This document shows, in pieces, positions 13,441-52,596 of a stretch of 64,000 nt of DNA. This DNA is from Euglena gracilis (taxonomy: Eukaryota). The notes below the pieces were generated by a model. The model had not been told where the DNA came from. It made no database searches and worked only from the letters and a program-made list of their open reading frames with translations. Where the stretch lies: the NCBI GenBank assembly GCA_039621445.1, contig CP154954.1, positions 34,569,737-34,633,736 on the forward strand, in the 5' to 3' direction. Numbering within the stretch: position 1 is the stretch's first letter; each line of letters starts with the position of its first letter. A program made the translations under genes and the position numbers.

Positions 13441-13451
13441 TGTGTCACCCC

Positions 13452-17400: not shown

Positions 17401-18160
17401 TTTTTCTTTGGAGGGGGGGGGGGGGTCGGTGGGGGGGGCGAACCTAAGTCAACCCTGAGGTGGCCGGGGGGGGGAGGGGGTGGGGGGGGGCGGCCCTCAG
17501 TCGACCCTAGGGTTGTAGGGGGGGGAGAGGTCGTGGGGTGGGCCGACACTAAGTAGACCCTAGGGTCGGCCCACAAGGGGTTTCTAGGGTCGCACCCCAC
17601 TCCACAGCCTCGGGGGGGGTCGACCATAGCGACCTTTGGCGACCTTTGGCAACCGTGGGCCGACCCTAGGGTCGGCCCACAACCCCCCCCCCCCAGGCCA
17701 GATCCGGGAGCTGGGGGGGAGGGCCTGGGGGGGGCCGCACCTAAGTCGACCCAAGGGTTGTGGGGGGGGGGAGGTCGTGGGTGGGCCGACCCTGGGGTCG
17801 GCCCACGACCCTAAGTCGACCCTGGGGTCGGCGACCCTAGGGTCGCCCACTAGGGGGGTCCCGGACGGCTCCTTGGGCGACCTTTGGCGACCTTTGGCGA
17901 CCGTGGGCAACCCTAGGGTCGGCCCACAACCCCCCCCCCCCAGGCCAGATCTACCCCCAGTACGTTAGTAGTAAGTACTAACGTACTAGTACGTTAGTAC
18001 TAGTCGGCCGACTACCCCCCCACCCAGTCTACCGCCGGATTGGGACCCGGGGGGGGGGGGGTTCGGCTCAGACCCGCAGCTGTAAAACTCCAAATTTTGT
18101 ACGAAAAATTTTGCAAAAATCTGATGATTTTTGATGTTTGATTTTCCATCCGTTTTGCAG

Positions 18161-18251
18161 GTGTCTGGGCTGGAGTATTGGAGGCAGTACCTTGCTGAGC
18201 CACGGGCTGTGGCCAAGCTGCCCACAGACCTTCCAAGGCCAGACAAATTGC
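18161..18251 (+). CDS. LYS2: LYS2 exon (first visible): [30 protein letters not shown]
   Basis: Pyrimidine tract and ttttgcag acceptor at 18160; condensation-domain-like YW..LPTD.PRP motif. Confidence 0.85.
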
Positions 18252-21200
18252 GTTCAAGCTTTTGTGTTCCCATCGTGATTTTCAAAAATGAGGCATGCGT
18301 GCGGTTTAGGGAAGTTCCAAATGTGGGTCCACTGAAACAGTGTTTCAATGGGTTTGCTGGAAGCCAAAGGCTTGCCCCAGCAGTCATCAAGGTTTGTGGA
18401 GGCCAAGCTGCCCTCCGGCTGCCTCCGATGAAGCCCACCTGGCCTCCCTCTTCGCCCTCCACGTCCACCGGCTGTCGGCGGAGGACGACGTCATCGTTGG
18501 GGCTGCCCTGCCCAGCGTGGGCCCGGCGGGCTGCCCCTCCGCCTGGACTTCAGCAGCAGTTCCCCGGCGGCGGAAGGACGTTCGGACGGGGGGGCGGCGG
18601 CCCAAGGCGCACCTGGAGGTGGCGAAGGACGCGGTGCTGCCCTGGGCAGGGCTGGGTGGGACCGGCGGTGCTCGTCATTCTCACATTCCTCCACCCAGCA
18701 CTGCCGCCGAATGACATCGAGCTGCGGCAGGAGTGAGCCAGGGACACGCAAGTGCCAGCCAACTCCAAACAACCAAATGATGGTTGGTTGGGCCCAACCC
18801 TTGCCTGGGGGGGCAAGCAGCACCAGAACAAAGTTGACCATTTTCCCTGTTAGAAAAACAGGGAGAGGGCGTTCAGGAGCATTTTTGTAAGGCGTAATTT
18901 TTCAATTTTTTTCTTGCATTTTTAAATTTTCAGGCGTATTTTTCTGAGGGAATTCAAGCCACGCCTGTGATTAGTCGGGTGCCTACCTCACGGGGGGGTG
19001 CTAGGGGCAGGCACCCTATACCACCCATCCGACCCCCCCGGGGGGGGGGGTTGGGTTTGGGGGGGGTGCCTGCCCATAGCAGCACCCCTCTGACCGGGGG
19101 CCCAAAAGGCCCTTTCAATGAAAATTTGGGTCCCCCCCGTTCCCCTACCCGGGGGGGGGTGTGCCGATAGGGCAGGCCCTATAAACCCACCACCAGATTA
19201 TTTTGACGAAATTTTCAATTTTTAACGTAAGGTTTTTTGAGGATTAAAAAAAAAGGTTTTTGCACAAAATGGGGTGGGTCGGCCAGACGTGGGCCAGAAA
19301 GTACGGCTCAGGAGCCCCCACGAAAATTTGCGGGCGACAAATGGCCCCTGCTTTTGTGTTGTTTGGAGGCTTCACCTGTGGCCAGCGGGCCGCCTCGTCC
19401 TCCGTTGGCTGTCTCGGGATTTCAATTGGGGGCTGACAGTTTGCACAGCGGCTTGCATTCAAAGCCAACAAAGCCGGCTTCTGATGAGGTGGCCCCCCAC
19501 CACGTGGGGCGGAGGGGACGAGACGGGGGGTGCCCTGGGGGGTGGGCCGGGGTGGGGTCGCTCACATTCTCCGGGGGGCGGGCCGAGCGCATGGTGGCGG
19601 GGGGGGAGGCGTTGGCGGACCGGCAGCGGGGTGGGACTGGGGGGGGGGGGGGGTTTCCACCCGCACCCCCATGACACTGGCTGGGGGGGGGTGGGGGACG
19701 CAGTAGGGGGGTTGGTTTTTTCCAACCCGGGGGGCAGGTAGACATGGGGAGGGGTTTCTGGGGGACTTTTCTTTTTCAGGGTCTTTCATGCTGGGGGTTC
19801 AGCCCCTGCTGGGTCTACCTACCACGGGGGGGTGTGTGGGGCAGGCACCCCCACCCACCCCGGGGGGGGGGGTTGGGTTTTGGGGGGGGGCGGGCCCGGG
19901 GCCGGGGAACAAATTTTCTGGGGGCCCCCGTTCCCCCTGGGGGGGGCTCTAGGCTTGCCGGGGGGGGCCCAGGCATTAGGCGAAATTTCTGGGGTTTTTG
20001 CGTAAGGTGTTTAGGTTTTTTGGGGGCTGTTGTGGTTTTTAAGCGCGAATCGGCCGCCTAAGTAAAAATTAAGTGCCAATCCTCCCCGAATCCGGTGGCA
20101 GTTGCCTGGAAAAACCTCGCGGGCGTGGCGGGACCGAAAACTCTAAAAGTGGGACCTGGGTCACTCCATACGACCCCCCCCCCCCCGGCACTCTTGATGA
20201 CCCGCTTCTGCAGCCCCATCAGCCGCTGATGTTTCAGCACCCACCAGGCTGGCATCCACCTCCCCGGTGCAACAGCACCCACCGAAGCGGCCATGTTATT
20301 CCATGCAATTGGGGCGTGAGACTGGGGGGGCGACCTGGTGCCAGCTCATGGCAACCAACAGCCGAAGAGAGAATAGCCCTCAAACACCCGTTACTTTGGG
20401 TGCAAGGAAGTGGTGAACCATTACCACTCGATTGGTTGCATCAAAGCTGTGGAACTCACTCCCACCAATTCAAATCCTTACGCTTATCTGCCAAACGGAT
20501 GAGGCCAAAACAACAGGCCTTGTGTGCCGGGGAACAGCAGTACAAATGTACACACGTAAGGCAGGAAAATTTTGGCCAGTCACGCCACGTTCAACTGCAC
20601 ATTACACACTACCTCTCTAATGCCAGAAACCTTGGCAAACAATCTGGTTTTCATATTGTTTGTTCACAACCGCTTCTGCATTGACTGGCTTTATGCGGGT
20701 TTCAGACATGCCATTATTTGTTTGCTGCAAAAAATTTTTCTCAGGGAGAATTTTAAGTCATCAAAGGGAAGAAAAACTTCCCAGGGTGATTTTTTAAGGT
20801 TTTTTAAGGTTTTTTAAGGCTTTTTAAGGCATTTGGCATATTTTGGCTTTTAAGGTTTTTAAGGTTTTAAGGCGCCTTTAATGTGGTTAGATTTTAATTA
20901 AGGTTCCCCCTCCCTATCTTTGAATCCTGATTCAAGCCCAATTAAAAAAAATTTTGGTTTTTTTGGTTTGGGTTTTGGGTTCTTGCTGCCAGTCCCCGTG
21001 GTTCCTTAGAAAAATTCGGTCAATTTTGAATTTTTGAATAAAATAGATTTTAAAAAATTTAAGGATTTTAGCCATTGACAAAATTTAATTTGTGTAAATG
21101 GTTTTAAAGAACCCTGATCCTACTGGGGGAACAGGTCGAGTGGACACCCGGAGGTTACCCCCTTATATTTGGCACAAAACAACCGCAAAGTCCTGAAGAA

Positions 21201-23036
21201 TTTTTGGGATCTCAAAATGGTTCCCTGTTCAACTTGCAATGCAAGGCTTGCAATTCCACCGATGAAATCTAGCTCTTTCCTTTGGAACAATCAAGCAATT
21301 GTGTGCCGAGGAAGCGCCACTCTTTACTGCAGTGTTTTCCTCAACGGGCAGTGGTTTAGACGCGGTGTGTGTTTTTTTTTTGCCATACGTTCATGGAGAA
21401 GCCCTGATGACCTGCCCCTCCGTGTGCATTCCTGCGGTTTATGAGAAGCTTTTCATCCATCCCAGGCCATAGGATCCGCCAAGCAATCCACGGTAAGTTA
21501 TGGAGGTGAACAGTGACTCTCTGGTGTCTTATTTGGTCTCTTACTCCCCCAAGCTCAAAAATTCTGTTTTCCGTACATAGCATGCACATTAAGACCACAA
21601 AGACTGTGGGGGTTGAGTTGACCGCTCCATCCCTCACTTTGTTTGCCCAGTATGCGTTGGTCTCTAACCCCAAAGCCTCACATGGTTTAAAGTCGAGCCT
21701 TGCTCTGCGCTTCTCGAGTGATTTGATACAATCAGCGTGCTTCCTCTGTCCATTCTCTCGTTCATTGCAGGAGGGGCAGTCGCCATATGAGTTGCTGCTG
21801 CAAGTAGTGGGAGAGACCCTGTGCCTGCACTACCAGACCGCTTTGTTCACGGCCGAGTTTGTTGCAGACCTGCTGCAGCAATACCTCCTCCTCCTGGAGC
21901 AGTTCAGGCTTTTGCATTGGTTTTTTTAATGCAGATTTTCTTGCCGTTTTGCCGTTCCCATTTTGAATTTTTTTTTTTTTTTCCACCACCATGTTGTTAT
22001 TTCAGCGGTTTTTTGAGTTCTGCTCACACTTCCGAATTTTGAAAAAAAAATGCATCTCTTTGTCTGGCCATTATTGGATTTTTGGCCCAAAAAACATATT
22101 TTATGCTTAAAATAAAACCAAACTCCCAAAATCATGGAAAAAGGTGTTTGCATTTCTCCTCTCCTCGTATCGCCCCTGCAGATCTCATTCCCAATGCCAA
22201 ATCTGAATTCTGGCCTCTAATGAGGAAAATTTGCAATCCACGCACCCTCTTTCTGTCTAACCCGACCCCCCCCACCCTTGTTCATGCCGCATTTGGAATT
22301 GATGAGCAGATGAGCTTGGTTATGACAGAAAGCCTTAAAAAATTGAGGACAATGAAAAAAAAATTTGTGTTTTTGTATTTTGTGTGTGTGTGTGTGTGTG
22401 TGCCAGAAACGGTGGGAATGACAGCAGCAGACAGGACGTGAACCAAATGTGCATCATGCTGGTGAGACAGGGTGCACGATTCTCAGCTCTGGCCTGGCAT
22501 TGACCAGTGCAAACCCCGAGCAGGGGATTTACAGTTACTCCGTCATCACCGCGCAGGCGAAGCAAGTGCTGCCTGATGCCACCGCCCCTCAGGACACAGA
22601 GTTCCCCGGGCCAATCCCACACTGCTTTCATGCGAATGCAGAGAAGCATCCACAGGTCCGTCAGCACTGGTGGTGTGTAGGGCCTCAGAAAATTGATGCA
22701 ATTTCTTGTTGATATGTCGGTAATTGATAACATTCAGAACTAGACACAATTTCAGTTCTGTTCCCGACGTTGTGGGGTGCATGATGTTTGGCAAGGAGGT
22801 GGTGGCCTCGAGGCAGCTACAGTGGGTTCCCTCGACCACTTCCAGCCCGCCAGTCTGGAAAAAAAAGTGCACCACTCCGGAAACACAACCAGCGGCCCCT
22901 GACCTGTCTTCGTGGCTGCGTCACCTCGGGCAAATGCTCTCATGCCCGAAACCGGCGTGGGACACCAGTTCTCTATATAGAAAATTGCTTGACCTGTCAA
23001 AAAACACCCCACCTTCCATTTGGACAACCAAACCCT

Positions 23037-23094
<58 letters not shown>

Positions 23095-23116
23095 TTTTTT
23101 TTTTTTTTTTTTTTTT

Positions 23117-23179
<63 letters not shown>

Positions 23180-26100
23180 CTAAAAAATTTTGCACACTCG
23201 TTTCAAAATTTTTGCCCCCCGTCCAAAAAACGCTGCCCCCTGTCCATTCTCTTTTGCCCAAAAAACCTCGAATTTTTGCCTCTGTCCTCCAAATTTTTGC
23301 CACCTCCAAAAATGTTCTCCCGCCATTTTCAGTTGAAATGTCTGCACAGAATGTTCCACAATGATGCACAGAATGTTCCACCCCTACACACTCACATTGC
23401 TCATTGTGACATTTTAAACACCATTTTTCCATGTTGAAAAAGAAAAAAATTTCAATTTTGATGCAAATGGTGTGGTGTTGTTCAATTGTGCCCAAATCTA
23501 TTTTCACCCAATGAGCTCACAGACGCAGCCAGCGTTTGTGTTGGATGCTTGACTTGGTCAGACGGTCCATGAACCATTGAAACCATTGAAACCGTGTCTG
23601 GGGGCTCCGGTTTCATGCCCGAACCGGCGTCTGGGACGCTGGTTCAGGCAGAAAATTTCTGCCCGAACCGGCGTCCCAGACGCCGGTTCGTGAAGCTAGC
23701 TAGCGTCTAGGGGACCCAAAATAAAAAGTGCCAAAAATTGTTCAAAAAGGGTTTGTAGACATGTGGCATTCAATTTTAGCAGTTTTTGGGTGGTCTTGGG
23801 CCAAAAATTTTTTTTGCAACAATTTTTTCAATTTTGCCGGAAAAAAAAAACGCTCCCCCCCCTGTCTCCCCAAAAACCTCGAATTTTTGTCCTTTTGTCC
23901 ACCCAAAAGTTTTTTTCCCAATACCCAATTTCACAAATTCCAGCGTTAGCCCCAGTGAAAATTATTTTTCGAATGTCTGTCAATTCCACGATTTCATGAA
24001 TTTTTCTGATGTGTTGTTTTGACTTTCCAAGTGAACCATAAAAACGAATTTTTCTGTGTTTCTTGTCGAAGCCAATGACTTGAAATTAATTTTGTTCACC
24101 CATCAAATTTCTCAAGTGCCAAAATTTTTCACCATAATTTATTCAGTTTTTTTCTGTTTGTTTTTTTTGCAATTTCGACGACCACGCAGCATGACAGAAA
24201 TCTAAGGCCATCTGCAGAAAGCCCTTGAGAAGAGCTTTCGATCGATGGGCAACATGGCAGCTGAAAAGTGGAATTTCAGATATGCAAATGGGGTCCGAAA
24301 AATGCGGAAAAATGCGATCGCTGATTTTGAGGGCGCTTTGCAATCTGGCTGAGTTCTGTGGGTACCAAGCGAAAGGTGTTGGCGAGACCTTTCGTTTGAT
24401 ATGCAATATGCAACCTGAGCAGTGGGATTTGACAAATTAGGATGTCAAATTTTGGAATACACGATCGCTGAAAATAAGCGCTGCGTGCATTATGGCCGAA
24501 TCCTGTGGCCATCTGTCGAAAGCCCTTTAAAAGAGCTTTCGATTAATGGGTAACACGCCTTCATAAGTATGAAATCTGCCATTTTTGACCGGCCGGCCAT
24601 TTGGGTCAAAGCCGCCCAAAAACTGCCCCAAACATGGGTATTTTGGGCGAAATTGGCCGTGATTCCCTAGCCGCCGGTTCGGGCATGAAACCGGAGCCCC
24701 CTAGCCACGGTTTCAAAACTGTGTCCCAGACGCCGGTTCGGGCGGGAAACCTGTGCCTGGGACGCCGGTTCGGGCTACCGCCCGAACCAGCGTCCCAGGC
24801 ACAGGTTTCATGCCCGAACCGGCGTCTGGGACACAGTTCTCGATATAGAAAATTTGCCTTGACATGTCAAAAACACCCCACCTTCCATTTGGACAACCAA
24901 ACCCCTTTTTGGCACCTTCATACCCAAAAATGGCCAAAAAACCTGTCCCCTAAAAATAGTACCGAAAATTGGTGCATTTCCACATCCAAAACAGAATTTT
25001 TTGGGCCATTTTTTCAAAAATGGCCCAAAATGTATCCCAAAAAATGTGATGGTCAAGAAAATCCTAACAAAATTCCTTTCAAAAATGAAAAAATGACCAA
25101 TTTCGGACATAAAAAAACACCCAAAAATGCCCACTTTCGGACCAAAAAGCTTTTTTTGTTCAAAAATGGCCCCAAAATGGCCAAAAATAGCCACTTTTTT
25201 GACCTGAAAATCACCGAATTTAGGATGCGTGCCGCCCTTCTCGTGATGGGATGCAACATCATGGATGCAGCCTCCCGATCCAAAGTGGCATAAACCCCCC
25301 CCAAATAATACCCCCCCCCCCAAATAATCCCCCCCCCCCCCTTGGGGTCCGACTTCGGCCGCCGAAATAATACCCCCCCCCCCGGTTTCGGGCCGAAGGC
25401 CCGGATTTTTGACCTGAAAATGTAGGTAAAAATCACAATTTCTGACAACAAATTATGGAAAAAATTGATTTTTCTGGCTCATCTGACCTCCAAAAATGGT
25501 AAATTTCACAAGAAAGTGCAAAAAATGACCCCAAAGGGCGGTTTTGGGTGCTATTTTGGGTTTTACGGGACTTCGGAAAATTTCGAAAATTTTGAAAAAA
25601 TAATACCCCCCCCCCCAAATAATACCCCCCCCCTCGGGCCGCGACTTCGGGCGAAAAAATAATACCCCGGGGGGGGGTATTATTTGGGGGGGGTTTACTT
25701 CCCCGTGACCCCCCCGTGACCCCCCCGTGACCCGCACCACCCCCAAAATTTCACAGAATGCCGAATGATAGTCAATGTTTTCATTTTAAGCACTCAATTT
25801 TTTTCATCTGCCTTGGGGGGGGGTTGGAAGTGGGGGGAGGGGGGGTCCCAGGAGGGGGGGTTGGAACTGTACAGGAGGTTGGGGGAGGGGCGGGGGTCCC
25901 AAGGTTTGACCAACCGTACTGCCTTGTCTCCAACGATATCTATCTGTGAATACAAATAGGTCAAAAAGGCAGTTTTACCACATGGCCTGGGGGGGGGTTT
26001 GTGGGGCCTACCCTATGGTCTGCCCAAAACGTCGCCAAAGGTACGAAGGCAGTGGGATTGGTTCTTTTGTTACCCGTCCCTCTCCTTACAAAGACTCGGA

Positions 26101-29100
26101 ATATTTTTACTGTGCCTCTTTGAACACATTTTTGTGTAGAATGACCCTCGCACATGGACGAAAAGTGCCTTCACCCCTCATTGCCAAACACGCTGTGCGT
26201 TGTGTTCACCGTTTCCCTCAACCTGCACCCCAAACTCTCTCGTGTGAATCACAACCATTAACCCCCCCCCCCAAAATAAGACCCCGGGTCCATTTCATGG
26301 GTCGGTTGCTGGAAAGCCCGAGGGGGGGGGGCTCCCGGATCTGGCCTGGGGGGGGGGGTTGTGGGCAGACCCTAGGGTCTGCCCACGGTCGCCAAAGGTC
26401 GCCAAAGGTCGCTATGGGTATTTCCTACTCAGTCCTTTTTGCATTGTAGCGGCGTAGGCAACTGTTCCAGGGCCCTAAAAAAAAAAATCCCTTGTGTGTG
26501 CAACACCTTTTGTGTGTATGTTGCGCTAATTTGCCGTGGAGCGCATTTTTTGACATCGACCTGCCCACGACCTTTGGCGACCATGGCGACCTTTGGCGAC
26601 CCTAGGGTCTGCCCACAACCCCCCCCCCCAGGCCAAATCTACCCCCCCGAGGGGGGGTCTTATTCATGGGGGGGGTCCATTTTATGGATTTTTGCTGGAA
26701 AAATTTTCGACCCCCCAAAATGTCCAAAAATGCCCCCCAAAATACCATTTTTCGGCGCTTCGCGCCAGACAAATAGGGGAAAATATGCTGAATTGTATGG
26801 AAACTGTCCCAAAATGACAGATTTACCCCACAAAAATGGCCCTTTCTTCAAAAATCCGGCGCTTCGCGCCGGCAGGGGGGTCTTATTTATGGGGGGGGTC
26901 CATTTCATGGATTTTTGCTCGGACCGGCCAGGGGGGGTCTTATTTTTGGGGGGGGTCCATTTTATGGGGGGGGTCTTATTTTTGGGGGGGGGGTTTACGT
27001 TGCTGTTGATTTTTTACTGTTTAGGCATTCATCCGCACCTCTCATTCTTTCCCCAAACACAGTTGAAGGTTTTTTTGTAGGGTATCAAACAAATTTCCTT
27101 TTGGAGAGCTGTCTGCAACATCCTGTGAAATTTCAATTGTCATTATTTGGATTGATGATCACGTTTATTTGGCGTATTTCTGTTAATTTATGCTGATTCT
27201 GTTGAATGTTTCCTTTTCACATTAACGGAAAATTTTTTTACAGTTGGCAAAAGTTTCGGGTCTCAAGGGCAAAAGTGATGGGATTTGTGGCAAAAAAATT
27301 TACCCGGGTGGCAAACATTTTTTGGAACCCTGGCAAAAGTGAGGGGTCCAGGAGGCACCGTATTTTGGGACGGGGGGCAGAATTTGGAGGGGTTAGCTAT
27401 AACACCGACAAGTTGGTGTATCATTTTCACATTTTTGAGATCCTGGGGGGGGTCAGAATAAGTGGGTTAAGGTGCTTGACATGGGGGGCCAGGGACGAAG
27501 CGATGTGCCTTCATGCTCTCCAATGTTTCACATCACCCCCAATAAACAACAGTCAATCTGTTCATATTTTGGCAAAAAGTGGATGCTGGGGTAAGCCTGA
27601 ATGCTCTTTTTTGTTTATTGCGACTTTTGTGCTTTGTTGTGGTTTCCCTTAGTGGTCCCGGATGCAAGCGAGGGGGTAGGTATAGATATAAATGGGGGGG
27701 GGTCGGTACAAATGGATTTCTTCTGATTTTTCCGGGGGGGGGTCGGTATAAATGGGGGGGGTTAACAATGGCAGCCTCATGCCCTTACGGTGCTCTCCAC
27801 AGCGCATCGCCATCTCCCACCAAGGCTTGTCGGTGACATATGAGGAGTTGGACCATACAACTGCTTAAATCTGGGCCAGCTGTGTTGAATTTTTAAGAAA
27901 AGGTCTTAAATGGTGGAAAATTGGGGTTGAGGGATTTTTTAATGGGTACTTTTAGTGCTCCCCCTATCCGGGGAGATATCCGGGGAGATTCCGGTATGGA
28001 ATAAACTGGAATTAACCGGAATGAATTAGAGTACATTGGAATAGGAACATGCGGGATTCGCCAGAATAAAGTTTTCAGCGCAACGTATGGAAATTTTAAA
28101 AAAGAAATGGAAGCCAAGGTGAATCTGCGGCTTTTTTGGACCACTGGAATTTCTTTCCATATTTTCTCTTGATTTATGCATAATTTTGGCAATTTCGGCC
28201 AGTTTTTGCCTTTTTTGAATTTTCTTTTTCTTCAGTTCTGTTGGGGGAAAAATTCGAACTTATAAACTCTGCATTAGGACCTCGTTTCTTCCTGACACCA
28301 AAGTTTTCGTCAAAATTTGACATTTTTTTTCCTTCAATTTTTGGTCAACAAATTCCATGTTTTTGGAATTGGTATGTTCCCAAAATCACAAAATGCGATT
28401 CAAAATTTAAACATCCACCAATGTTGCAAAATCAAAAAGAATCCCCAAGGAGTTGAAAATTCTCTAAGTCCTGTCAAGCAGAAATCTACCAGAATAACTG
28501 GAAAGATCCCAAATTTTGTGGAATAAAGCCCCTATCCGAATTAAAATTTTTTTTGGAAACTGGAATCTCCCTCCCCCTGCCTGTGGGTGGTGGGCGGGTG
28601 GGATCGACCACCCCCAACCACATCCCCACCTCCAAACCCCCATCTAAACACCCGCCCGTGGCAATGGAGTTTTGGCTGAAGGGTTTGGGAACAGTGGGGT
28701 GTCTTCACTCTGACACCCCCCCCCCCCCCAATACCAGGTCCATTTCCGGGGACACCGATTTTCCAGTAAATTTGACCGACCCCCCTCCCCACCTCCCAGG
28801 TGGGGGGGGTCAACCCCCACCAGTCCTTCAAGTACAGCATTGGCAGTTCCTGGTGGGGGGCTGGCTTGAAAAGAAGCCTGCCCAGCCAGGTTCGACATAA
28901 GCAGGGTGCCTGTGTTTCAAGGGATGGGGTGTCCCCACCCGCCCCGACCCTGCTTTTTTTTACAATTTCGGGTCACCCCCCCCCCGGTCGTATGGACCAG
29001 CACCAGGGTTTTTCACAAAAAAAGTGCTGGTGACCCAATACAGGGGGGGGGGATGCGTTTCGCATTTTTTTCGCATTTTTTGCGCATTTTTTCAAATTTT

Positions 29101-34182: not shown

Positions 34183-34224
<42 letters not shown>

Positions 34225-43200: not shown

Positions 43201-46200
43201 ATAAAGGGCCAGCCCTCAAGGACAGCCCTCAGGCCAAAGGGCCGTCCAAGGGGCGGATTGGGGCACGAACAGGGTCGAAAATAAATGGTTGAAAAAACGC
43301 TTTTTTTGACGTTTTGGGTGAAATTGCATCCTTATACAGCAAAAGAAGTTAATTGCCTGAACCGTTTATTCTTTATAGTTGCTGACCCGGGAATGAAGGA
43401 GACAATTTCAACGCTGTGATACCTCATGCATGCTGTTCATGCTGTTCCCCTCTCTCAGGCATTGCCTCCGCTGGACAGTGTGGATGCGGACCTTCCAGAG
43501 AACACGGCCAGCCTGGACCACCTCACTCCCACCCAGCTGAAGGTGCTGGAAGTGATCCGGGCTGCCCTGCACACCAATGCAGTTGGTGTGAGTGCATGGG
43601 CATGGGCCGGCCAATGTGTCCAAACGACCTCAAGCAATGTATGCAAAGCCTGGCACAACACAAGTCACTTTGACATATCCTGTGAAATGAGTGCATCATC
43701 ACCCGCAGTTCATCGCTCCCCCCCTTCTCTCCTCCTTCCTCCATTCATTCATGATTCATCCCAGTTCATCCATCATCGCTCCCCCCCTCCATGTGGATGC
43801 GTTGCCAGGGAGGTGGATGGCCCTCCGTGTCGGCTCTGATGCTCATTGGCTGCACACTGGCATGGCATGGCAACCTGGCGGCCCAAAACGGCCCTCATCG
43901 CCTCCACAGGCCCGGAGGACAACTTCTTCAATGTCGGCGGCCACTCCCTGGCGGCCATCCGGACCACGATGGAGCTGAACAAAACGTTCGGTATCCAGCT
44001 GCCCACCTCCGTGATCTTCAACGAGCAGACCGCTGGCCAGGCCTCTTGTGGCTGTGACAACTGCCGCCGGCTTCAAACAACACTCCTTTTTTTGCTCTGG
44101 ACCACATTCTCACCCAACCTTTTTCTATCTTTTCCCTTTCCTCTGCTACACAAAACGTTTTTTTTTCCCATTCATCCATGTCTCCCCTCTCTGGTTCATG
44201 TTCTTCAACACATCGCCTTCCATTTTCCAACCTCCATCTGGAGAACTCTAAATTCAATCAAATTCACATGAGAAGCTGGGGGGCAGGGGGGGTGAATGAA
44301 TTGCAAGTTGCAGTTGCGCTTCGCAGGTTTCGAGCCCCAGGGAGGTGCGCACAAGCGGCCTGCGTTGTTCGCATCGGGTCGGCGGTCGACGCCGTGCGGT
44401 CCGGCAGTGCGGGCAAGGCGGCGGCCCCCAAGGTGGACATGCTGGCCGAGGCGGTGCCGGCGGCCGACATCCAGGCGCGGGACGGGGCCATCCCGCCGTC
44501 CGGCAAGCCAGTTGGGGTGTGCCGGCCTTCCCTGGAGCAGAAATGCAAGGGACTACGTCTGTTCCAACTCCACAGTGCGGGTTTGATGTAATATTGGTTC
44601 GGACGAAAGTGCAGTCAAAAAATGGCCCAAATGTTCCCAGACGAAGGAAACAGCACAAAATTTTGCAGTGGCCCATTTATGAAATGGTCCGTTTTAATGA
44701 GATGAATAACCCCTCCCTCCCCCAAATACCCCCCAAGTGATAAAACCCCCAGACTACCAGGTTTTGTGTTGCGCCGGTGGCACGGCACAGGCGCGCAGCT
44801 GGCCCTGGAGATGTGGGGTGATGGATGGTCCCCAGGGCTTTAACCCCCCTCCCCAGTTAGAAGCCCCCCAGGGCTACTATTCGGTCAGTCTGCAATTCTT
44901 TTTTTACAAAAAAAATGCAAAAATGACAAAAGAGACAAAAAATTGCCAGGAGACAAAAGAAAAAAACGATAAAAAAAACACAAAACACAACAAAAATGCA
45001 GAAACATAAATTTTCCTAAAATCAAAAAAAAAACCCAAAAACGCTTTGCGTTCCCCCCTGTCATGTATTTGCAAAATGTTCAAAATCAAAAATTGACCAA
45101 AAGAATCAACAGGGCACCTGTGCCCCTTTTTGCAACTTAGGGTCTTTTTTTTCCCCCACAAACAGGCACCCTTTTGCGACTACTATTCCGACTACTATTC
45201 TGACTAATTCATCCTTTTTTGTCATTTTTGAAATGCTTTTGATGATTTTTATTCCTTTTTCTGTGCCTTTTTCCACAGTGTGGAAGGGATAGTTTATTAT
45301 TGGGCAGCCGAAATTAGTACTTGGGGGGGCAGGGATGTTTGGGAAGTCCTGAGGTCAAGACCATACCATTGCTTACCAACCCCCCCCCGGGGGGAGAGGG
45401 TAGCTTGCCGTTTTCAAAAACCAGTCACCCACTTCCACCCGGGGGGGGGGGGGCGTCGGCCACTTTGGCCACATAGCCAAAATGGCCTAAAATCAAGGGA
45501 TTTTGGCCAAAAATCCCAAAAATTTTCTGGCGACGGGTGGCCATTTTCAGGAATTCCCAGCTGCCCACACTGCCAGAAGGGGGGGTCTGAAAAAAAAACA
45601 ATCAGCAACACCCAGCGGGGGGGGGGAGGTCACATTTTAAGGAGCGGTCCGGACTCCCCCTCCCAACACATCAAACCGGACTGTGATGCACACCCACCCG
45701 ACAATGATGCACAACCACCGAACGGTGACACACCTCCACCGGACAGTGACGCACATCTATGGACTGTGACGCATATGCACCAGACAATGACTCACAGAGG
45801 GATGGGAGCCCCCCGACCTCGAAACGGTAAGGGGCCAGGAAAATTTTTGGTCTGTGGATGGTCAAAGGGTACCGGATACCAGACCAAAATTGTTGGGAAA
45901 TCCTGATCCTTCTTTGAAAAAAATTCTGAAAATGCTCATTTTGATTTTTTGGCATTTTTTTTAATGTGGAAAACAGTACAATATGCAGAAATGTGCAATA
46001 TGACTGAGTGTGCAACATGATTAAAATGAGGAAGAGGACTTCCCAGCACAACAGCGCCGGAAACTAAAATTTAGCCATTTTTAGAACCTGCCAAGGATGG
46101 TCCGGACACCCCCACCCAACATCTAGTAGGGGTCAAGACCCCTACTCCAACCTCAAACCGACAGGCTTCCCATACATCCCTGGGGGGTATTTATCGCTGA

Positions 46201-49200
46201 CCTCTTATCTCTTCAGTGTTGCTTAACAGTGAAGCTTAACACCGGGAAAAGGGGGACCCCCCCACAGGTTGGTCATGAGAACGGCGGATTATCACCATGA
46301 CCCCGAACCCATTCCCAGAAAAAAATTTTCAATCGCAAGCGACTGGATCCCAGCTTTCCAAATTGTTTGACACCGAACTCCCATCCAGGCCCGAGTTATT
46401 CAGCCGACAAAGGGGACTTCAGGTCCTGGGTAGGATTAGCCCCCCCACCCAGTTTCGACTCTGCTGTTTCGCCGGGGTAAGATTTTGGGTTGAGAAATCG
46501 ATTTTTCAAAAGAATGTCGTACATTATTGCCGAAAGTGTCTGCCAGACCAAATGTGCCCCTGGAGACCCTCTAACCCCCCCCATTCGTCATTTTTAGCCG
46601 CCGACACACCTGGCACATGTTCGGGCTTGGTTTTGTGGCCCAAAACAGCCATTTTCTGAGTTCATTTGATTTTGGGGTGTTTTGGGGCATCTTTTGGGGC
46701 AGTTTTTTTTTGGACTTTTGGGGTCAAAAAATCGAAAATTTCAAAACATCAAATGGTAGGGAATGAAAAGATTGGGCTCCTAAAACAAACCCCCCCCAAG
46801 CCAGGGTTGCTGTTTTTTTTTTGTCGAGGAAATTTTTGTCTGACAAAACATTGAGAAACATTCGAAAAAAAAGGGTCTTTTTGTGTTTAAAGAAGTTACG
46901 ATTTGCCCATGGGTGAAATGGCTCACTTTCCTAATCCTTTTTCAGCTTCATTGGCCCTCTAGTGGACAGGAGGAAGCGGTGTGGGCCTGCTATGGCCTGA
47001 ACTACCAAAAATCCAAATAGCAGCCCCCCAGGCAGCCGCATGTATTCAAGGCGCTGGCAAACTGCAGACACATAAATGCAACATAGATCAAGTTTTTGCC
47101 ACACTTAGCAGTCTTTTGGTTTCTTGAACCATTTGGTGAGAGAGGGTTGGGCAGGTTTAGATATAAGGAGGGCGTACATGGTTTAGGTGGGGGCGTGGCC
47201 CCCCCCCCCCCCCCCCCCTCCTGGCCCGCAGGGGGGGTCCGCCCCCCCCCCCCCACCTGCAAGGGGAGTCCGGACCGACCCTGGGGGGGGGTACCCGGGG
47301 GTACCCAATTTTTTCCTCCGGCGCTTTGTGCCGAAATTTTTTTGCATTTTTGGCCAATTTTTGCCCAAAAAGTGCCCAAAATGGCACTTTGGTCGATTTG
47401 GGGGGTCAAAAAATTTCGGTCACCCTGACCGCGCCACTGTTTAGGTGGGGGAGGGTGTCCCCCCCCCCCCCCCCCCCCTCCTGGCCCGCAGGGGGGGTCC
47501 GGACCACCACCCCCCCCTCCTCTCCTTATATCGAACCCTGGGGTTGGGACAGAGGGACGCTTAGCAAATGAAAAGAGCAATTTCCACATCGAAGTCCAAA
47601 AAGCCAGACTTTTTACACCTGGTACAAAGTGCAGAAGATTTTTTAGGCTGCAAAAGGGTACCCAATTAGAAGCCCCCCCCCCCACTTCTAAACCAGCAGA
47701 AAGCGGAAAGTGTGCATGCCAGCCAGGGCATAGCTTAAGAAAATTTGACCCCACCCCGGGGGGTCCAGCCAGCCAGCCAGCAGCCTTTTCCAACCCGGGA
47801 ACCCCCCTTCAACGAAAATTTTCCAGCTGCCCAAAGGGCGGCTGGACGGTAACGAATTTTTGTTTTCAGGGGTGCAAAAATGGCAAAAATGGGTCAAAAA
47901 TAGGCGAAAATGGGCGAAAATGGGTCAAATTTGGGCTGGCCAACAAAAATTTGGGGTCAAATAATACATTTTTTTTGCATAATTGCCAGTTTTTGGGGCA
48001 TTTTTGTGATTTCGATTTTTTTTTTGGTACCCGGTTCGACCCCGAGTCAGGCCCAGCTCCAGCCCCGGACCCTGGGGGGGGAAACGTCCTGATGCCAACT
48101 GAAATATTTTGCATGCAATTTGCTTTTTTTTTGGCTTTTTTTGTGAGTTTTTTGTGGGGTTTTTGTGTTTTCTTTGCTTCTTTTTGCATCGCTTTTTTTC
48201 GAGGGTCCAGGTTGTGTCACCCCCAGCAAAAATGACACCCACCAAATGGAAAAACTCCCGGCCCTCGATTTCGAGTGTCCAAATAATTACCGGGGTTTTG
48301 GTAATAATTTTGGGGTTAGTTGCCACTGTTTGTTGCTTCTGACGTGCCCAAAATTTTACTTTTCCCCCAAGGAATCTGCTGAAATCAGGGTTTTTTTTAG
48401 TCGTGGACCCCCGGGGGGGGTAGGGTGGGTGGGTCCGGCTGAGCCCCGCCCCCCCCCCCCCCCCGGCCGAAGGCGCAGAAAAAGTGCTATTTTAGCACTT
48501 TCGCGATTTTTCGGCCATTTTTTTGTGGGTCCCCCGGGACCCCCCCCCCCCGGTCTTAAAAAAACCCCTGCCTGAAATACACAGTGCGATGGGGAATTGG
48601 GCAAAGATAAATTTGTTCCGATAAAATTGGTGGCAGAAAAATCAGACAAAATCCTTGAATGGCCCAGGTTACTGAACAGAGCCATTGCGCACTTTACGTC
48701 CTCCTCCGTAGCCTTTTTTTGTTCGTTGCTGTCTGCGGTGCTGCCTCACAGGCCTTCGTCACGGGGGCGGACGGGTTCGTGGGCAGCTTCGTGGTGCACA
48801 CTTTGGTGGAGCTCACCGACTGCCCCATCTACTGCCTGGTGCTGAGTGAGAGCGTCGACGAGGCCAAGGCTCGGATGACTCTGCCACTCCCTCCCTTGCT
48901 CTTTTTGCTGCTTTTCTGCAGTACAATGCAGACAAAAATTACAGGAGACAGAAATTATGGGGGAAAATATTATGGGAATATTTTGTTTTTGAAAAAATGA
49001 TTGGGAAAATTCAAAAGTTGAGGGAAAATAGCGGGAAATTTTTGTCAGTGGTAATGAATATTTTTTTTTGGCAAAAAAGGCAACTCAAAGTTCCAAAAAT
49101 GGTCAAAATGGACGTCATTGTGGCTTTCCGCTTTAAAGTCACCCCAAAAAATTGACAATATTGCATAACTCCATCTTTTTGTGTTTTTGAAGTTTTGACC

Positions 49201-52200
49201 AACCTTGAAACCCCCCCCCCCCACAAAGGGCGCAAGAAAGGAACACTGGACAAACATTACGGGAAGAAAAATGATGGAAAAATCGTGGTAGTTTCTCAAA
49301 GTTTGCCCGTATTTTTTTTGTCCAGACTGTAAGCCTCGAATGCTTACTTCCATGTTGTAGGATCCCCCCCCCCCCCCGGGAGTCCAGGGCAGACTCCCCC
49401 CAGGGGGGGGTCCTGGTCCAGAGGCCCAGGTTTAGCCTCATGGGTATGGGCCCCGGGGTGTCCATGCCTGCAAGGGAGGGTGTGCAGCTGCGCGCTGGAG
49501 GCCATCGGTCGGTGGACCGACGCGTGCGAGGGCCGCCTGCGCATCTTGCCGGGCAACCTCGCCAAGCCCAAGCTGGGGCTGACGCCTGAAGCCTACGAGG
49601 ACGTGGCCAACAACACCGACGTCCTGTTCCACGTCGGGGCGTGGGTGAACTGGCTGCACGACTACTACACCCTGAAGCCCATCAACGTCGGCGGCACGGC
49701 AGAGAGCAGGGCACTCCTGGACATTGTGTGGGCAGAAGCCCATGTCCTCTATTCGGCTTTTTTTATGTACCAAATATGGAACAAATGGTCGAAAGCCAAG
49801 CCCAATGCCCTTGGAAATCGAAACTCAACCTTCGGGGCGGTTTTTGACAAGTTGGGTTCAGTGAAAAGGGCCAAAGAACTCACCGTGTTTGTCACCCTGA
49901 ATGCCAAGTTTGGCAATGGAATTGCCTGCCTGTTGAATTTCTAGCCGCACCCGCAGTTTTTCCAGAACTCATAAAAGGGTGATTTCCGAAAAGAAGCATG
50001 TTCCCGCGGCTTCTCCAGATGGGCCGCCATTCAAGGCAATTGGTTCGGGGCGAAGCGCCCTGCCGTCGGTGCTGCGGCTCGCCGTCGCGGGGTCGCGCCT
50101 GAAGAGCTGCCACCACATCTCCACCACCAACGTGTACGAGACCCCCTCCCTGCTGGCCAAGCCATCCGTGCCACCCAGGGAGTGGGGCCGTTGCTGCCAC
50201 CCCCCCTCCTCACCTTTTGGGCATTTGTGGTTCCCCGCGGCGATGACCTGCTCCTCTCCCCCCTCCCTGGCTCTGGAGCTGCTGGACCTCACGGTGACGG
50301 AGGGCATTGACGGGGGCTACAGCCAGAGCAAGTGGGTGGCCGACGCCATGATGGGCAACGCCCGGCGGCGGGGCATCCCCGTCTCCGTCTACCGCCCCGG
50401 CTTCATCACCGGTGCGCGCCTCACTGTGTGCATGTGCGTGTCAGGGGAACACGAGGGCTTCCGCTTCTCCCATGAGAAAGGGGTTACACATCGTTGCAAC
50501 GTCTTGCAGAACCTTCCAGAGGGTGCAGCCATACCCAATTTTGCCCCAGCCCAGCAGCCCCGCCCCTAAAGATGAATGATGGGATTTCTTCTGCCCTTTC
50601 TGCTTTTGCATCAAAGCAAGACGAGCATCTGGCGACGTTGGCGCTGTAAAAACAACCACGACAAACAACAACAACAACCACGACAAACAACAACAACAAC
50701 AACAACAACAACAAACACAACAACAACAACAGCTGTTGTTGTTGTTGTTGCTGCTGTTGCTGCTCTCTTTAACCTCCTGCAGCGGGTGTCTCCTCTTGCG
50801 AATCTCAGCCACGAGCATCAGGGTCCACCAGAGAAATGTCGCCAATACAGGCACGTGGTTTCTCTTCAAAGGATTTGCAGACCCCCAGCCCTGATTTTGG
50901 CCAAGCGGTGCTGCAAGCCAAGCCCCCCATCCTGCCGCCTCCCCTCTTGTCCTTCAGGTGATTCACAGACCGGCAAGTGGACCACGGACGATTTCCTCTG
51001 CCGCTTCCTCAAGGGCTGCACCCAATTGGGCCTGCACCCGGATCTGCCGGGGCACTTGGGGATCGACATGTCGCCCGTGGATTACGTCGCGGGGGCGGTG
51101 GTCCGGCTGGCCATCAACCCCGACACGCATGGCAAGACGTACCACGTCGTGTCCCCACAGCTCTTCCCCTACCCACGCTATTTTGAGTCACTGCGGTGTG
51201 TTGCTGTTATCCTCATCTCCCTGCGTGTGGTTTTTCTGTGCGTGTGCATTCTTCACGTAAGAATGCCCGTCAGCAAATTTTGTTGCCACTTGAACGTTGG
51301 GGGGCCTGAGGGGTCCGGCTTAAGAATTCCCCGAACAAATGTTATTTCACTTTCACTTTGCATAATAAACCAGGCAGCATACAGCATGCATGCTTAAAAA
51401 AATATGATACTGGACCAGAGCACCAACCAACATTTTTTTTTAAGAAAAGGACTAAACATGCCAAAAATGGCATTTTTTGAGCTCCTGAGGAGTGGCCCTA
51501 GTTGGTTAAGTTTAAAACTCACAAATTTTTTATGGCCTTTGGTTTTTATTTCTTTTTGGGCTTTGCTGTTTTTGGGGGGGGATTATAATTCTAAATTATC
51601 AGTATCTGAATTTGAATCCGGGTTAATCCGGGTTATGGGCAACCATTACGCACACATGTTGCCAAGAAACTCCCTGATGTACAGCCGCCATAAGGAAAAC
51701 AGGAACAGTTTTGCTGCCCTGCCGTTCATTGCAAGAATTGCTGTGCCACTGCTTCTCACTTCCTCGGACAGGCGCAATGGTTACGCCGTCACCCCTGTAC
51801 CATATGCTGAGTGGCAGCCAGAAGGATGTTCCCATCTTCTTTGGGCTTGCTCCTCCAGTCCCTCCAGTAGATCCACCCCACCCCCTCCCCCCCTCCCTCC
51901 CGCTCATTTCAAACCCTCTGGGGGGATCCCACGCTGGGCAGGTGGTGTGGAAAAGAAGGCTGTTTTTGCGCATCCAACCGTGGCCCATCACCTGGTCCCC
52001 CCCCCCGCCCCAACGGGAAACACGCCTCTGGGGGTGGCAGCGGCTGATCGCCGCCATCGCCGGCCAGGGAGACAGCGCCGAGCCCAACGCCCTCACGGCC
52101 ATCCTGCCAACCTTCACGGAGAACTGGCTGGACACGCGCATCCGCCCCGCCCAGGCTGCCCAAGGCGCCCTCCACCTGAAACTGTTTTTTTGGAAGCATT

Positions 52201-52596
52201 TTTTTTTTGAGCCTAGAAATCTTTTTCTCTTTGGGGTTCCGCCAAGATTTTTTTTTGCATGATGGCATGCTGAAAGGGTGAGCGTAGTATTTTATTGCCA
52301 AGTGATTTATACTGGGCTTATACTTAGCACTTGTGTTTATTTGCTGTCATTCCCCCTTTTTTCGCCTACACCGAAGCCCTCTGTGGCCTGCGGCCAAGTG
52401 GGAGCGGACAAATCTGGATGCGGGCCTGGCGAGCGTCCCCGGCGGCTTCGCGTTCCCCGACATCGACGCCACCATGGACGTCTACCTCCAGTACCTGGTG
52501 GATCTGGGCTTCATGCCGCCCAACGACCGGCTGAAGCCGTCCGGGAAGACCCACCTGCTGATCACCCGCATCGCCCCCCGCCCTGACCAGCGCTGA
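18161..52596 (+). CDS. LYS2: Alpha-aminoadipate reductase (LYS2-type, NRPS-like ADA/C*-A-PCP-R), ~30 exons, start codon not located
   Basis: Hand-spliced exons give motifs in the correct order: [201 protein letters not shown] at 52594-52596. Confidence 0.93.
18380..18644 (+). CDS. LYS2: LYS2 exon: [47 protein letters not shown] (contains apparent indels)
   Basis: In-frame join across paired-end intron 18252-18379; LPLRLDFS lies in a shifted frame, implying small indels. Confidence 0.75.
18709..18741 (+). CDS. LYS2: LYS2 mini-exon (W)NDIEAAAGVSQ, needs one extra G
   Basis: Bounded by two paired-end introns (cagggctgggtgg/ccacccagcactg; cacgcaagtgc/gcaattgtgtg). Confidence 0.55.
21311..21364 (+). 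CDS. LYS2: LYS2 exon [18 protein letters not shown]
   Basis: PLF..VF motif of C domains; GT donor at 21365; in phase with the next exon. Confidence 0.75.
21771..21901 (+). CDS. LYS2: LYS2 exon [38 protein letters not shown]
   Basis: cattgcag acceptor; end-of-C-domain motif Y..LF. Confidence 0.85.
22502..22655 (+). CDS. LYS2: LYS2 exon [33 protein letters not shown]
   Basis: Resembles the LYS2 linker before the A domain; GT donor at 22656. Confidence 0.9.
22920..24910. repeat. Intronic copy or copies of the ccgaaccggcgtc element family, with a poly-T tract at 23039-23179
   Basis: Shared blocks with 3660-4700; 22940-23034 is repeated at 24808-24905. Confidence 0.7.
25291..25697. mobile_element. 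MITE (taaacccccccc-aaataatacccc TIR)
   Basis: Inverted ggggtattatttggggggggttta at the right end; internal subrepeats aataatacccc. Confidence 0.75.
26259..26997. mobile_element. MITE (aacccccc-aaaataagacccc TIR) hosting the short Foldback-family element
   Basis: Inverted ggggtcttatttttggggggggtt at the right end. Confidence 0.75.
26329..26645. mobile_element. Short (~320 bp) member of the same Foldback-like family, nested in another MITE
   Basis: Same ends (gggctcccggatctggcctggg...ccaggccaaatctacccc); one satellite monomer at ~26458-26497; flanked by the duplication cccgagggg. Confidence 0.85.
27803..27850 (+). CDS. LYS2: LYS2 exon [16 protein letters not shown] (A1 motif)
   Basis: ctctccacag acceptor; TYEEL is the A1 motif; not in the ORF track. 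Confidence 0.85.
29041..29499. mobile_element. MITE with CAGGGG...CCCCTG ends and internal (gcgcattttt)n repeats
   Basis: Inverted ends; flanking duplication cccaata. Confidence 0.75.
30739..32095. mobile_element. Two ~640-bp MITE copies in inverted orientation (~30739-31382 and ~31454-32094)
   Basis: Each copy has aacccccccc..atttaaaccgac / gtcggtttaaatggggggggtt ends; the second is the near-identical reverse complement of the first; ~70-bp gap. Confidence 0.88.
32829..32954 (+). CDS. LYS2: LYS2 exon [27 protein letters not shown]
   Basis: A1-A2 region; in frame with both neighbours. Confidence 0.9.
33209..33347 (+). CDS. LYS2: LYS2 exon [33 protein letters not shown]
   Basis: A2 motif LKAG..DPAYP; GT donor at 33348. 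Confidence 0.92.
33986..34146 (+). CDS. LYS2: LYS2 exon carrying the A3 P-loop (..AMVAFTSGSTGIPK), frameshifted as assembled; copy 1
   Basis: cccccag acceptor; [29 protein letters not shown] followed by indel-broken ttcacc..gggtccactggcatccccaag. Confidence 0.7.
34392..34620 (+). pseudogene. Second, more degraded copy of the A3 exon and its acceptor
   Basis: Parallels 33948-34144 (gctttggaggggaactc...ttcacctctgggtccact..catccccaag) with many indels; separated from copy 1 by a G-rich tract. Confidence 0.65.
36304..36365 (+). CDS. LYS2: LYS2 exon ..[18 protein letters not shown]
   Basis: Matches the LYS2 H.SL..YF.WM...F segment; 5' phase unresolved. Confidence 0.8.
36524..36625 (+). CDS. LYS2: LYS2 exon [34 protein letters not shown]
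   Basis: LYS2-characteristic A4 variant [18 protein letters not shown]. Confidence 0.95.
36857..36968 (+). CDS. LYS2: LYS2 exon [37 protein letters not shown]
   Basis: TPG.LA.WM and TPAMGQ motifs; GT donor at 36969. Confidence 0.93.
36993..37398. mobile_element. hAT-type MITE, family 1
   Basis: TIRs cagggtttgatataagga / tccttatatcgaaccctg; perfect 8-bp TSD gtgggtgc (36985-36992, 37399-37406). Confidence 0.92.
39118..40861. mobile_element. Palindromic Tc1/mariner (IS630-Tc1-mariner) derivative made of two inverted 3' ends
   Basis: TA|cagcagggaaatt...aatttccctgctg|TA; ~830-bp arms with ~80-bp spacer; each arm encodes QQDGAPAH and SPDLNPIE transposase motifs. Confidence 0.92.
40089..40662 (+). 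pseudogene. C-terminal fragment of a Tc1-like transposase (D-37-E spacing after removing intron 40186-40441); mirror copy at ~39317-39890 on the minus strand
   Basis: [47 protein letters not shown]...[20 protein letters not shown]-terminal half missing. Confidence 0.88.
41003..41107 (+). CDS. LYS2: LYS2 exon [35 protein letters not shown]
   Basis: AG and GT boundaries; FVGD.L.KRD motif. Confidence 0.93.
41190..41305 (+). CDS. LYS2: LYS2 exon [29 protein letters not shown] (A5)
   Basis: NM.GTTETQR motif; ctctcag acceptor. Confidence 0.95.
41883..42034 (+). CDS. LYS2: LYS2 exon [38 protein letters not shown] (A6)
   Basis: GE..EIYVR...L..GY motif; 3' end approximate. Confidence 0.92.
42124..42360 (+). 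repeat. (CA)n and (CACAC)n microsatellite in a LYS2 intron; similar tracts at 34640-34855, 57100-57240, 58905-59160
   Basis: Seen directly. Confidence 0.9.
42408..42594 (+). CDS. LYS2: LYS2 exon ..[47 protein letters not shown] (A7-A8)
   Basis: Canonical A7 and A8 motifs; 5' end approximate. Confidence 0.95.
42770..42866 (+). CDS. LYS2: LYS2 exon [22 protein letters not shown]
   Basis: In frame between two paired-end introns. Confidence 0.9.
42988..43086 (+). CDS. LYS2: LYS2 exon [33 protein letters not shown] (A9-A10)
   Basis: PSYMVP and PLTPNGKI motifs; GT donor at 43087. Confidence 0.95.
43459..43585 (+). CDS. LYS2: LYS2 exon [27 protein letters not shown] (A-PCP linker and PCP helix 1)
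   Basis: AG and GT boundaries; in frame. Confidence 0.9.
43910..44034 (+). CDS. LYS2: LYS2 exon [25 protein letters not shown] (PCP, phosphopantetheine Ser)
   Basis: FF..GGHSL motif; ccacag acceptor. Confidence 0.95.
44367..44516 (+). CDS. LYS2: LYS2 exon [27 protein letters not shown] (PCP-R linker)
   Basis: GC-rich coding-like segment in frame with neighbours; GT at 44517. Confidence 0.8.
47152..47540. mobile_element. hAT-type MITE, family 1 (second copy)
   Basis: Homologous to 36993-37398; perfect 8-bp TSD gggttggg (47144-47151, 47541-47548). Confidence 0.92.
48386..48570. mobile_element. hAT-type MITE, family 2
   Basis: cagggtttttttt...aaaaaaacccctg; TSD gctgaaat/cctgaaat (7 of 8 match). 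Confidence 0.85.
48752..48877 (+). CDS. LYS2: LYS2 exon [31 protein letters not shown] (R-domain Rossmann motif)
   Basis: TGxxGFxG NAD(P)H-binding motif; ctcacag acceptor. Confidence 0.93.
49492..49703 (+). CDS. LYS2: LYS2 exon [44 protein letters not shown]
   Basis: Thioester-reductase motifs; 5' end approximate. Confidence 0.93.
50068..50172 (+). CDS. LYS2: LYS2 exon [35 protein letters not shown]
   Basis: HIST motif of SDR-type R domains. Confidence 0.9.
50275..50411 (+). CDS. LYS2: LYS2 exon [28 protein letters not shown] (YxxxK catalytic motif)
   Basis: GY.QSKWVA motif; GT donor at 50412. Confidence 0.95.
50958..51195 (+). CDS. LYS2: LYS2 exon [36 protein letters not shown]
   Basis: TDDFL.R.LKG..QLG and PVDYVA motifs; AG and GT boundaries. 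Confidence 0.95.
51772..51815 (+). CDS. LYS2: LYS2 exon [14 protein letters not shown]
   Basis: ggacag acceptor; GY.V..V.Y..W motif. Confidence 0.88.
52039..52148 (+). CDS. LYS2: LYS2 exon [30 protein letters not shown]
   Basis: NAL..L motif; junction position ambiguous within the direct repeat gtggcagc. Confidence 0.85.
52396..52596 (+). CDS. LYS2: LYS2 last exon [27 protein letters not shown]
   Basis: Y..YL...GF.P C-terminal R-domain motif; TGA stop. Confidence 0.92.
   Translation, partial: KWERTNLDAGLASVPGGFAFPDIDATMDVYLQYLVDLGFMPPNDRLKPSGKTHLLITRIAPRPDQR

Follow-up and report, generated by a model that had tools for sequence, protein, structure and literature searches.

Based on the codon-level mapping of a transcript-derived protein onto a 64,000-nt stretch of the Euglena gracilis genome (assembly GCA_039621445.1, contig CP154954.1, positions 34,569,737 to 34,633,736 of the forward strand; hereafter the window), combined with comparisons to published intron classes, we conclude that 18 of the 29 introns of a LYS2-like gene are almost certainly ordinary nonconventional introns of the euglenid type. 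The two ends of each intron form a terminal helix from which the junctions keep a fixed distance, and the changes at the paired positions +6 and -8 (counted from the first and the last intron base, respectively) are compensatory between introns. The phenomenon is already known: both the pairing of the ends and the fixed spacing are on record in the literature and have been probed by mutagenesis.

The gene was identified through P0002, a transcript-derived protein of 1295 residues (source name eukprot:EG_transcript_671), which was retrieved in a protein-collection search with the translation of the exon at 49495-49701 and is 100% identical over the 69-residue query. Among NCBIfam families, P0002 matches TIGR03443 (L-aminoadipate-semialdehyde dehydrogenase) best, with 877.6 bits across positions 2-1359 of the 1390-position profile, as compared with 464 bits for the runner-up. 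Pfam detects AMP-binding, AMP-binding_C, PP-binding and NAD_binding_4 domains in an order that fits LYS2 / L-aminoadipate-semialdehyde dehydrogenase, along with a condensation-like N-terminus that stays below threshold. Given this family assignment, these domains and the enzymes of the alpha-aminoadipate (AAA) pathway reported in Euglena (review, PMC6630311), 'LYS2-like' is a fair name, and the window gene is, judged from its sequence, probably an E. gracilis nuclear gene for a LYS2-type alpha-aminoadipate reductase.

When P0002 was chained by exact 5-mers along the three forward frames of the window, the following gene emerged:

18161-52593, + strand: LYS2-like gene, exons for P0002 residues 22-1295; 30 exons, 29 introns

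The source label of P0002 and the exact chaining over residues 22-1295 identify the host as a euglenid. The first 21 residues of P0002 were not found in the window, where the best tblastn match reaches 45% over 22 residues and lies in a repeat; therefore, either an upstream exon lies outside the window or the 5' end of the transcript is different. The first mapped exon starts after an AG acceptor (...ttttgcag^gtg, the caret marking the junction; window 18150-18161). Across the whole gene three substitutions separate the window from P0002, namely Y272H, S385A (in exon 10) and S836T, at 27818, 34027 and 43984, which suggests that another allele or strain lies behind the P0002 transcript.

All donor/acceptor split points that exactly reproduce P0002 were enumerated for each intron. 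Ten of the 29 introns are GT-AG introns, 18 have no GT-AG register and one (34148-36303) falls in neither class, in agreement with the sequence-only reading, which had claimed that about 18 of 29 introns are non-GT-AG with paired ends. Between one and eight registers are compatible with P0002 for 17 of the 18, none of them GT-AG and none AT-AC. The remaining intron, 18644-18708, gave no solution in the enumeration, and its borders were set by reading the sequence together with the chaining diagonals. A GC-AG register is available in a single case (42596-42770), leaving 17 of the 18 with neither GT-AG nor GC-AG. Fifteen different kinds of terminal dinucleotides occur, and AT-AC, the signature of U12-type introns, is not among them. 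Most of the junctions can be slid by 1-7 nt along short direct repeats. With borders chosen within the allowed registers and the G-U of CGG/CTG counted as a pair, the triplet at +4 to +6 is complementary to a triplet near the 3' end in all 18 introns: CAG/CTG in ten, CAA/TTG in three, CAC/GTG and CAT/ATG in two each, and CGG/CTG in one, the same five kinds as had been noticed from the letters. The introns listed here rest on the P0002-compatible registers and the triplet scoring, with a 5' spacer (the bases before the first triplet) of 3 nt and a 3' spacer (those after the second) of 5 nt unless stated.

18252-18378, + strand: nonconventional intron CAA/TTG, 127 nt; 3' spacer 4 nt (CCCC, 18375-18378)
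18644-18708, + strand: nonconventional intron CAG/CTG, 65 nt; borders assume that the C-run 18640-18642 is one C short
18742-21310, + strand: nonconventional intron CAC/GTG, 2569 nt; 4 registers
21902-22501, + strand: nonconventional intron CAG/CTG, 600 nt
27851-32828, + strand: nonconventional intron CAT/ATG, 4978 nt; 8 registers
32955-33208, + strand: nonconventional intron CGG/CTG, 254 nt; middle pair G-U
36366-36523, + strand: nonconventional intron CAA/TTG, 158 nt
36626-36856, + strand: nonconventional intron CAG/CTG, 231 nt
41306-41882, + strand: nonconventional intron CAT/ATG, 577 nt
42035-42407, + strand: nonconventional intron CAA/TTG, 373 nt; 3' spacer 6 nt
42595-42769, + strand: nonconventional/hybrid intron CAG/CTG; 12-bp terminal helix; register 42596-42770 reads GC-AG
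42867-42987, + strand: nonconventional intron CAG/CTG, 121 nt; 12 consecutive Watson-Crick pairs
44035-44366, + strand: nonconventional intron CAG/CTG, 332 nt; 3' spacer 4 nt
48882-49489, + strand: nonconventional intron CAC/GTG, 608 nt; unique register; eleven more pairs after one mismatch
49704-50067, + strand: nonconventional intron CAG/CTG, 364 nt
50173-50274, + strand: nonconventional intron CAG/CTG, 102 nt
51816-52035, + strand: nonconventional intron CAG/CTG, 220 nt; unique register
52149-52395, + strand: nonconventional intron CAG/CTG, 247 nt

Removal of the 18 introns at these borders is supported at the codon level by P0002, with a leeway of 1-8 nt owing to the short direct repeats. 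The 5' spacer is 3 nt throughout. Fifteen introns have a 3' spacer of 5 nt, whereas it measures 4 nt in 18252-18378 and 44035-44366 and 6 nt in 42035-42407, such that the +4 to +6 / -8 to -6 pairing occurs in the exact register in 15/18 and in all 18 when a 3' spacer of 4-6 nt is allowed. Outside the helix, the downstream exon begins with a purine in every case and the intron itself in 17 of 18, while a pyrimidine is found as the last base of the upstream exon in 13 and as the last intron base in 12. Within it, C at +4, T at -7 and G at -6 are invariant, and A at +5 is present in 17 of the 18.

The third position of the 5' triplet behaves differently, as +6 and -8 form a Watson-Crick pair in 18/18 introns using all four kinds of pair (G-C in eleven, A-T in three, C-G and T-A in two each). 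This covariation is seen among 18 different introns of one gene, not among orthologues. When the 3' letters are shuffled, 7.66 pairs are found on average, and none of 200,000 shuffles reaches 18; for the 15 strict-register introns, where all 15 pair, the observed value is reached by 19 of 2,000,000 shuffles (9 of 200,000 in a smaller run). When the 3' partner is moved by -3 to +3, no more than 0-2 of the 18 triplets remain paired, as opposed to 18/18 in register. In a set of 19 non-GT-AG introns that includes 34148-36303, mismatched 5' and 3' partners give a Watson-Crick triplet in 129/342 combinations when all registers are combined. With strict register and Watson-Crick pairs only, 14/19 non-GT-AG introns pass, versus 0/9 GT-AG introns; at their GT-AG register, all ten conventional introns show pairing runs of 0-2, none reaching 3. 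A scan with P0002 for metagenome loci that could serve as orthologues returned 491 pattern matches, which reduced to two loci with 26-28% identity; these are not euglenid orthologues and were set aside.

Folding of the intron ends, which the sequence-only reading had put forward as a check, points in the same direction. With the terminal 10 nt of either end joined by a U7 loop, as in Gao et al., the folds of the 18 introns average -8.44 kcal/mol, as compared with -2.67 in the ten GT-AG introns (p=0.0013) and -4.74 among 306 mismatched partners; when the ends are lengthened to 20 nt, these means become -19.19, -7.96 (p=0.0001) and -10.69, respectively. In the four introns of at most 127 nt, which were folded whole, the closing helix is part of the minimum-free-energy structure in 4/4 cases, starting at +2 to +4.

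Several details proposed from the letters alone required revision. Thirteen of the 18 coordinate pairs fall exactly inside the allowed registers and five differ by 1-4 nt: 18252-18379 becomes 18252-18378, ~18645-18708 becomes 18644-18708 by sequence reading with one C missing from the exon 2 C-run, and ~48878-49491 and ~51816-52038 give way to 48882-49489 and 51816-52035, each the sole P0002-compatible solution; the marks of approximation at 42035 and 44035 are unnecessary. A reversed CTG/CAG stem suggested near 48881/49485 is rejected, since the unique, protein-defined borders yield CAC/GTG in the normal register. About five introns had been considered off register, and three were found (18252-18378, 44035-44366 and 42035-42407), all by the length of the 3' spacer. 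The broader proposal that structure and register, rather than sequence, define the splice sites holds for the fixed register and the compensatory +6/-8 pair, but not for positions +4, +5, -7 and -6, which are almost invariant and therefore offer nothing to covary. Sequence thus counts besides structure, given this near-invariance and the failure of most middle-position compensatory variants in published work.

These features are in agreement with what has been described for euglenids. Milanowski et al. (2014, PMC3935182) identified CA/TG at +4,+5/-7,-6 as the most conserved feature, together with purine/pyrimidine preferences at the borders, and Milanowski et al. (2016, PMC4770533) reported the pairing nucleotides +4 to +6 / -8 to -6 as the most conserved element, with complementarity rather than sequence being kept. 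Gao et al. (2024, PMC11170887) found the same consensus and end pairing in thousands of E. gracilis introns, their set comprising 16,151 nonconventional versus 11,527 GT-AG introns. The 18 introns share with that class (PMC3935182, PMC4770533, PMC11170887) the lack of GT-AG ends, the mostly CAG/CTG pairing with complementarity kept, the stem joining the junctions, the purines at intron +1 and at the exon start, the slidable borders and the occurrence side by side with GT-AG introns in one gene. Nothing of substance differs here, and the LYS2-like gene is not discussed in the parts of that literature consulted. The nonconventional share of 18/29 (62%) compares with 71.8% of introns in E. agilis (Nomura et al. 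2025, PMC12501133).

The latter study derived, by knock-in mutagenesis, the code 5'-N3CDG-/-CH'GN5-6^R (the caret again marking the junction), which demands exactly 3 nt in the 5' spacer, tolerates variation in the 3' spacer and calls for a purine at the exon start and an inner helix; most compensatory variants at the middle position failed in the assay. The present introns conform in the 3-nt 5' spacer (18/18), the 5-6 nt 3' spacer (16/18) and the purine exon start (18/18). CAG/CTG or CGG/CTG is found in 11/18, and the full code describes 10/18, one CAG/CTG intron having a 4-nt spacer. The difference lies in seven introns with a compensatory change at the third/first letter of the triplets and in the two with a 4-nt 3' spacer. 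The main text of PMC12501133 makes no mention of CAA/TTG, CAC/GTG or CAT/ATG; such CAH/DTG introns, like those with a 4-nt 3' spacer, would belong to the 'Unclassified' 28.9% of E. agilis introns in its Dataset S7. Intron 42595-42769 is akin to the intermediate or hybrid introns of euglenids, as it carries the full CAG/CTG signature and a 12-bp helix with GC-AG one base downstream, resembling a GC-AG nonconventional intron of PMC4770533 and the 0.8% hybrid introns of PMC12501133; only this one of the 18 is hybrid. The introns of hemistasiid diplonemids (Thakur et al. 2025, PMC12621601), which belong to the same phylum, are also alike in their non-GT-AG ends and extensive end pairing, but these are different organisms, and the likeness rests on the general description rather than on motif or register.

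A number of observations weigh against this assignment. The TIGR03443 score of P0002 (877.6) is below the curated NCBI cut-off of 1030.1, and the junctions have been deduced from a predicted protein whose source is a transcript assembly, i.e. at the codon and not at the nucleotide level. Intron 18644-18708 fits only if a base of exon 2 is absent from the assembly, the simplest candidate being a C of the C-run 18640-18642. The seven CAA/TTG, CAC/GTG and CAT/ATG introns (7/18) lie outside the CDG/CH'G signature of Nomura et al. (PMC12501133), and introns 18252-18378 and 44035-44366 carry the 4-nt 3' spacer that in the knock-in assay left only about 20% of wild-type transcript (PMC12501133). Finally, the z-scores of the whole-intron folds are modest (-2.53, -1.70, -1.99 and -0.48, with +0.72 for a GT-AG control), and the signal is therefore the closing helix and not total stability.

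Alternatively, a normal U2-type spliceosome may remove the 18 introns, with the helix merely joining odd splice sites and no separate machinery involved. The literature, as far as it was covered, names no such machinery; Gao et al. call for experimental verification and note that some other species depend on the spliceosome for nonconventional splicing (PMC11170887), an almost complete U2-type spliceosome is retained in diplonemids whose introns are mostly noncanonical and pair at their ends (PMC12621601), and 42595-42769 is readable as GC-AG. Nevertheless, we consider this explanation unlikely, as the 15 kinds of terminal dinucleotides follow no common pattern and the cut positions track the register of the helix instead of a donor-like sequence, in line with the published lack of complementarity to U1 snRNA and the later removal of such introns (Guminska et al. 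2018, PMC6221363).

The short direct repeats of 1-7 nt that flank most junctions and make them slidable bear on two further explanations. One is that the segments are insertions resembling miniature inverted-repeat transposable elements (MITEs), present in the assembled haplotype and absent from the transcribed allele, i.e. a DNA polymorphism and not introns. Nonconventional introns have inverted ends flanked by short direct repeats, a MITE-like origin has been proposed for them (PMC4770533, PMC12501133), and the three residues by which P0002 differs from the window may indicate another allele or strain. Yet it is far-fetched that a single gene should hold 18 segments differing independently in presence or absence, each of them in frame with the transcript and bearing the splicing signature, the 18 share no mutual similarity at E<=1e-8, and knock-in experiments show that such sequences are spliced from RNA (PMC12501133), which makes this account highly improbable. 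Equally slight is the chance that the non-GT-AG junctions are artefacts of reverse-transcriptase template switching, of transcript mis-assembly at the direct repeats or of genome assembly errors. The assembly is indeed noisy in exons 2, 3 and 10, with indels of 1-2 nt relative to P0002, but the other 27 exons contain no indels and only two substitutions, removal of the 18 segments restores a continuous protein of 1295 residues that aligns with TIGR03443 from one end of the profile to the other, and the CA..TG core is in fixed register in 18/18, against 0-2/18 in the slid controls.

The helix extending inward from CA-N/N'-TG brings both junctions of each intron together. Assuming that the 18 are euglenid nonconventional introns, we propose from the literature that a machinery recognising a helix with the CA...TG core may then cut at fixed distances, which are 3 nt on the upstream side of the 5' strand of the helix and, past its 3' strand, about 5 nt further downstream. 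As nonconventional introns have been found to be removed after spliceosomal ones (PMC6221363), cutting would likely follow spliceosomal removal of the ten GT-AG introns of the same pre-mRNA. The excised intron may leave as a circle, circular excision being cited in the discussion of Nomura et al. (PMC12501133).

With respect to the splicing code, we lean towards the view that CA-N/N'-TG introns with any complementary +6/-8 pair are spliced as well as CAG/CTG introns. If so, the 2025 code CDG/CH'G would be too narrow, a CA..TG core with a free compensatory pair would account for a considerable share of the 'unclassified' introns of E. agilis (28.9%), and the natural 4-nt 3' spacers (2/18) would show more tolerance than the knock-in assay suggested. 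The seven CAH/DTG introns represent a small possible extension of that code; this is a refinement and not a discovery, because the 2016 paper (PMC4770533) already states that complementarity rather than sequence is kept. The importance is mostly one of annotation. Gene finders and spliced aligners bound to GT-AG mis-model the LYS2-like gene and most Euglena genes, and the register rule (3 nt, CA-N ... N'-TG, 5 nt, purine) fixes borders that direct repeats leave ambiguous.

The deviations of the assembly from P0002 are confined to three exons in so far as indels are concerned. Exons 2 and 3 (18378-18741) show losses of 1-2 nt at about five places, visible as shifts of the chaining diagonal (18225 > 18223 > 18222 > 18220, and 18284 > 18283). 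The stretch is very GC-rich, and the losses are probably errors of the assembly or, with less likelihood, the mark of a defective allele. Exon 10 (33986-34147) contains 1-nt indels and is followed on its 3' side by a long G-rich to poly-G tract (about 34157-34380) and, at about 34400-34620, by a second copy of the exon, which is far more degenerate and also includes the final ~25 nt of the preceding intron. The duplicated exon and the poly-G tract look like a local assembly problem or a genuine tandem duplication. The adjoining intron was placed in neither class because the noisy exon and its duplicated copy blur the donor:

34148-36303, + strand: intron with AG acceptor and, as assembled, donor TG; beside noisy exon 10, poly-G and the degenerate second exon copy

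The conventional introns of the gene are the following:

21365-21770, + strand: conventional GT-AG intron
22656-27802, + strand: conventional GT-AG intron; 8 registers
33348-33985, + strand: conventional GT-AG intron
36969-41002, + strand: conventional GT-AG intron
41108-41189, + strand: conventional GT-AG intron
43087-43458, + strand: conventional GT-AG intron
43586-43909, + strand: conventional GT-AG intron
44517-48751, + strand: conventional GT-AG intron
50412-50957, + strand: conventional GT-AG intron
51196-51771, + strand: conventional GT-AG intron

An all-against-all blastn comparison at E<=1e-8, which gave no MITE family common to the 18 nonconventional introns, returned a single repeat between two of these GT-AG introns, 36969-41002 and 44517-48751, which have about 420 bp in common (36993-37399 and 47152-47541, 82% identity). 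The first of the two also contains open frames on the + strand (40026-40659) that resemble the C-terminal portion of a Tc1/mariner-type transposase; in Pfam, 40423-40659 has a weak DDE_3 match below cut-off (E=0.009, 16.3 bits) and 40026-40262 has none. Within intron 22656-27802, a run of 141 T (97% matches) is found at 23039-23179. At gathering thresholds, Rfam has no matches in the whole window. Just upstream of the gene lie two large satellite arrays, 8632-13939 and 14134-17370, built from a 112-bp unit (34 + 78 bp sub-repeats), which run in opposite orientation and meet near 14000.

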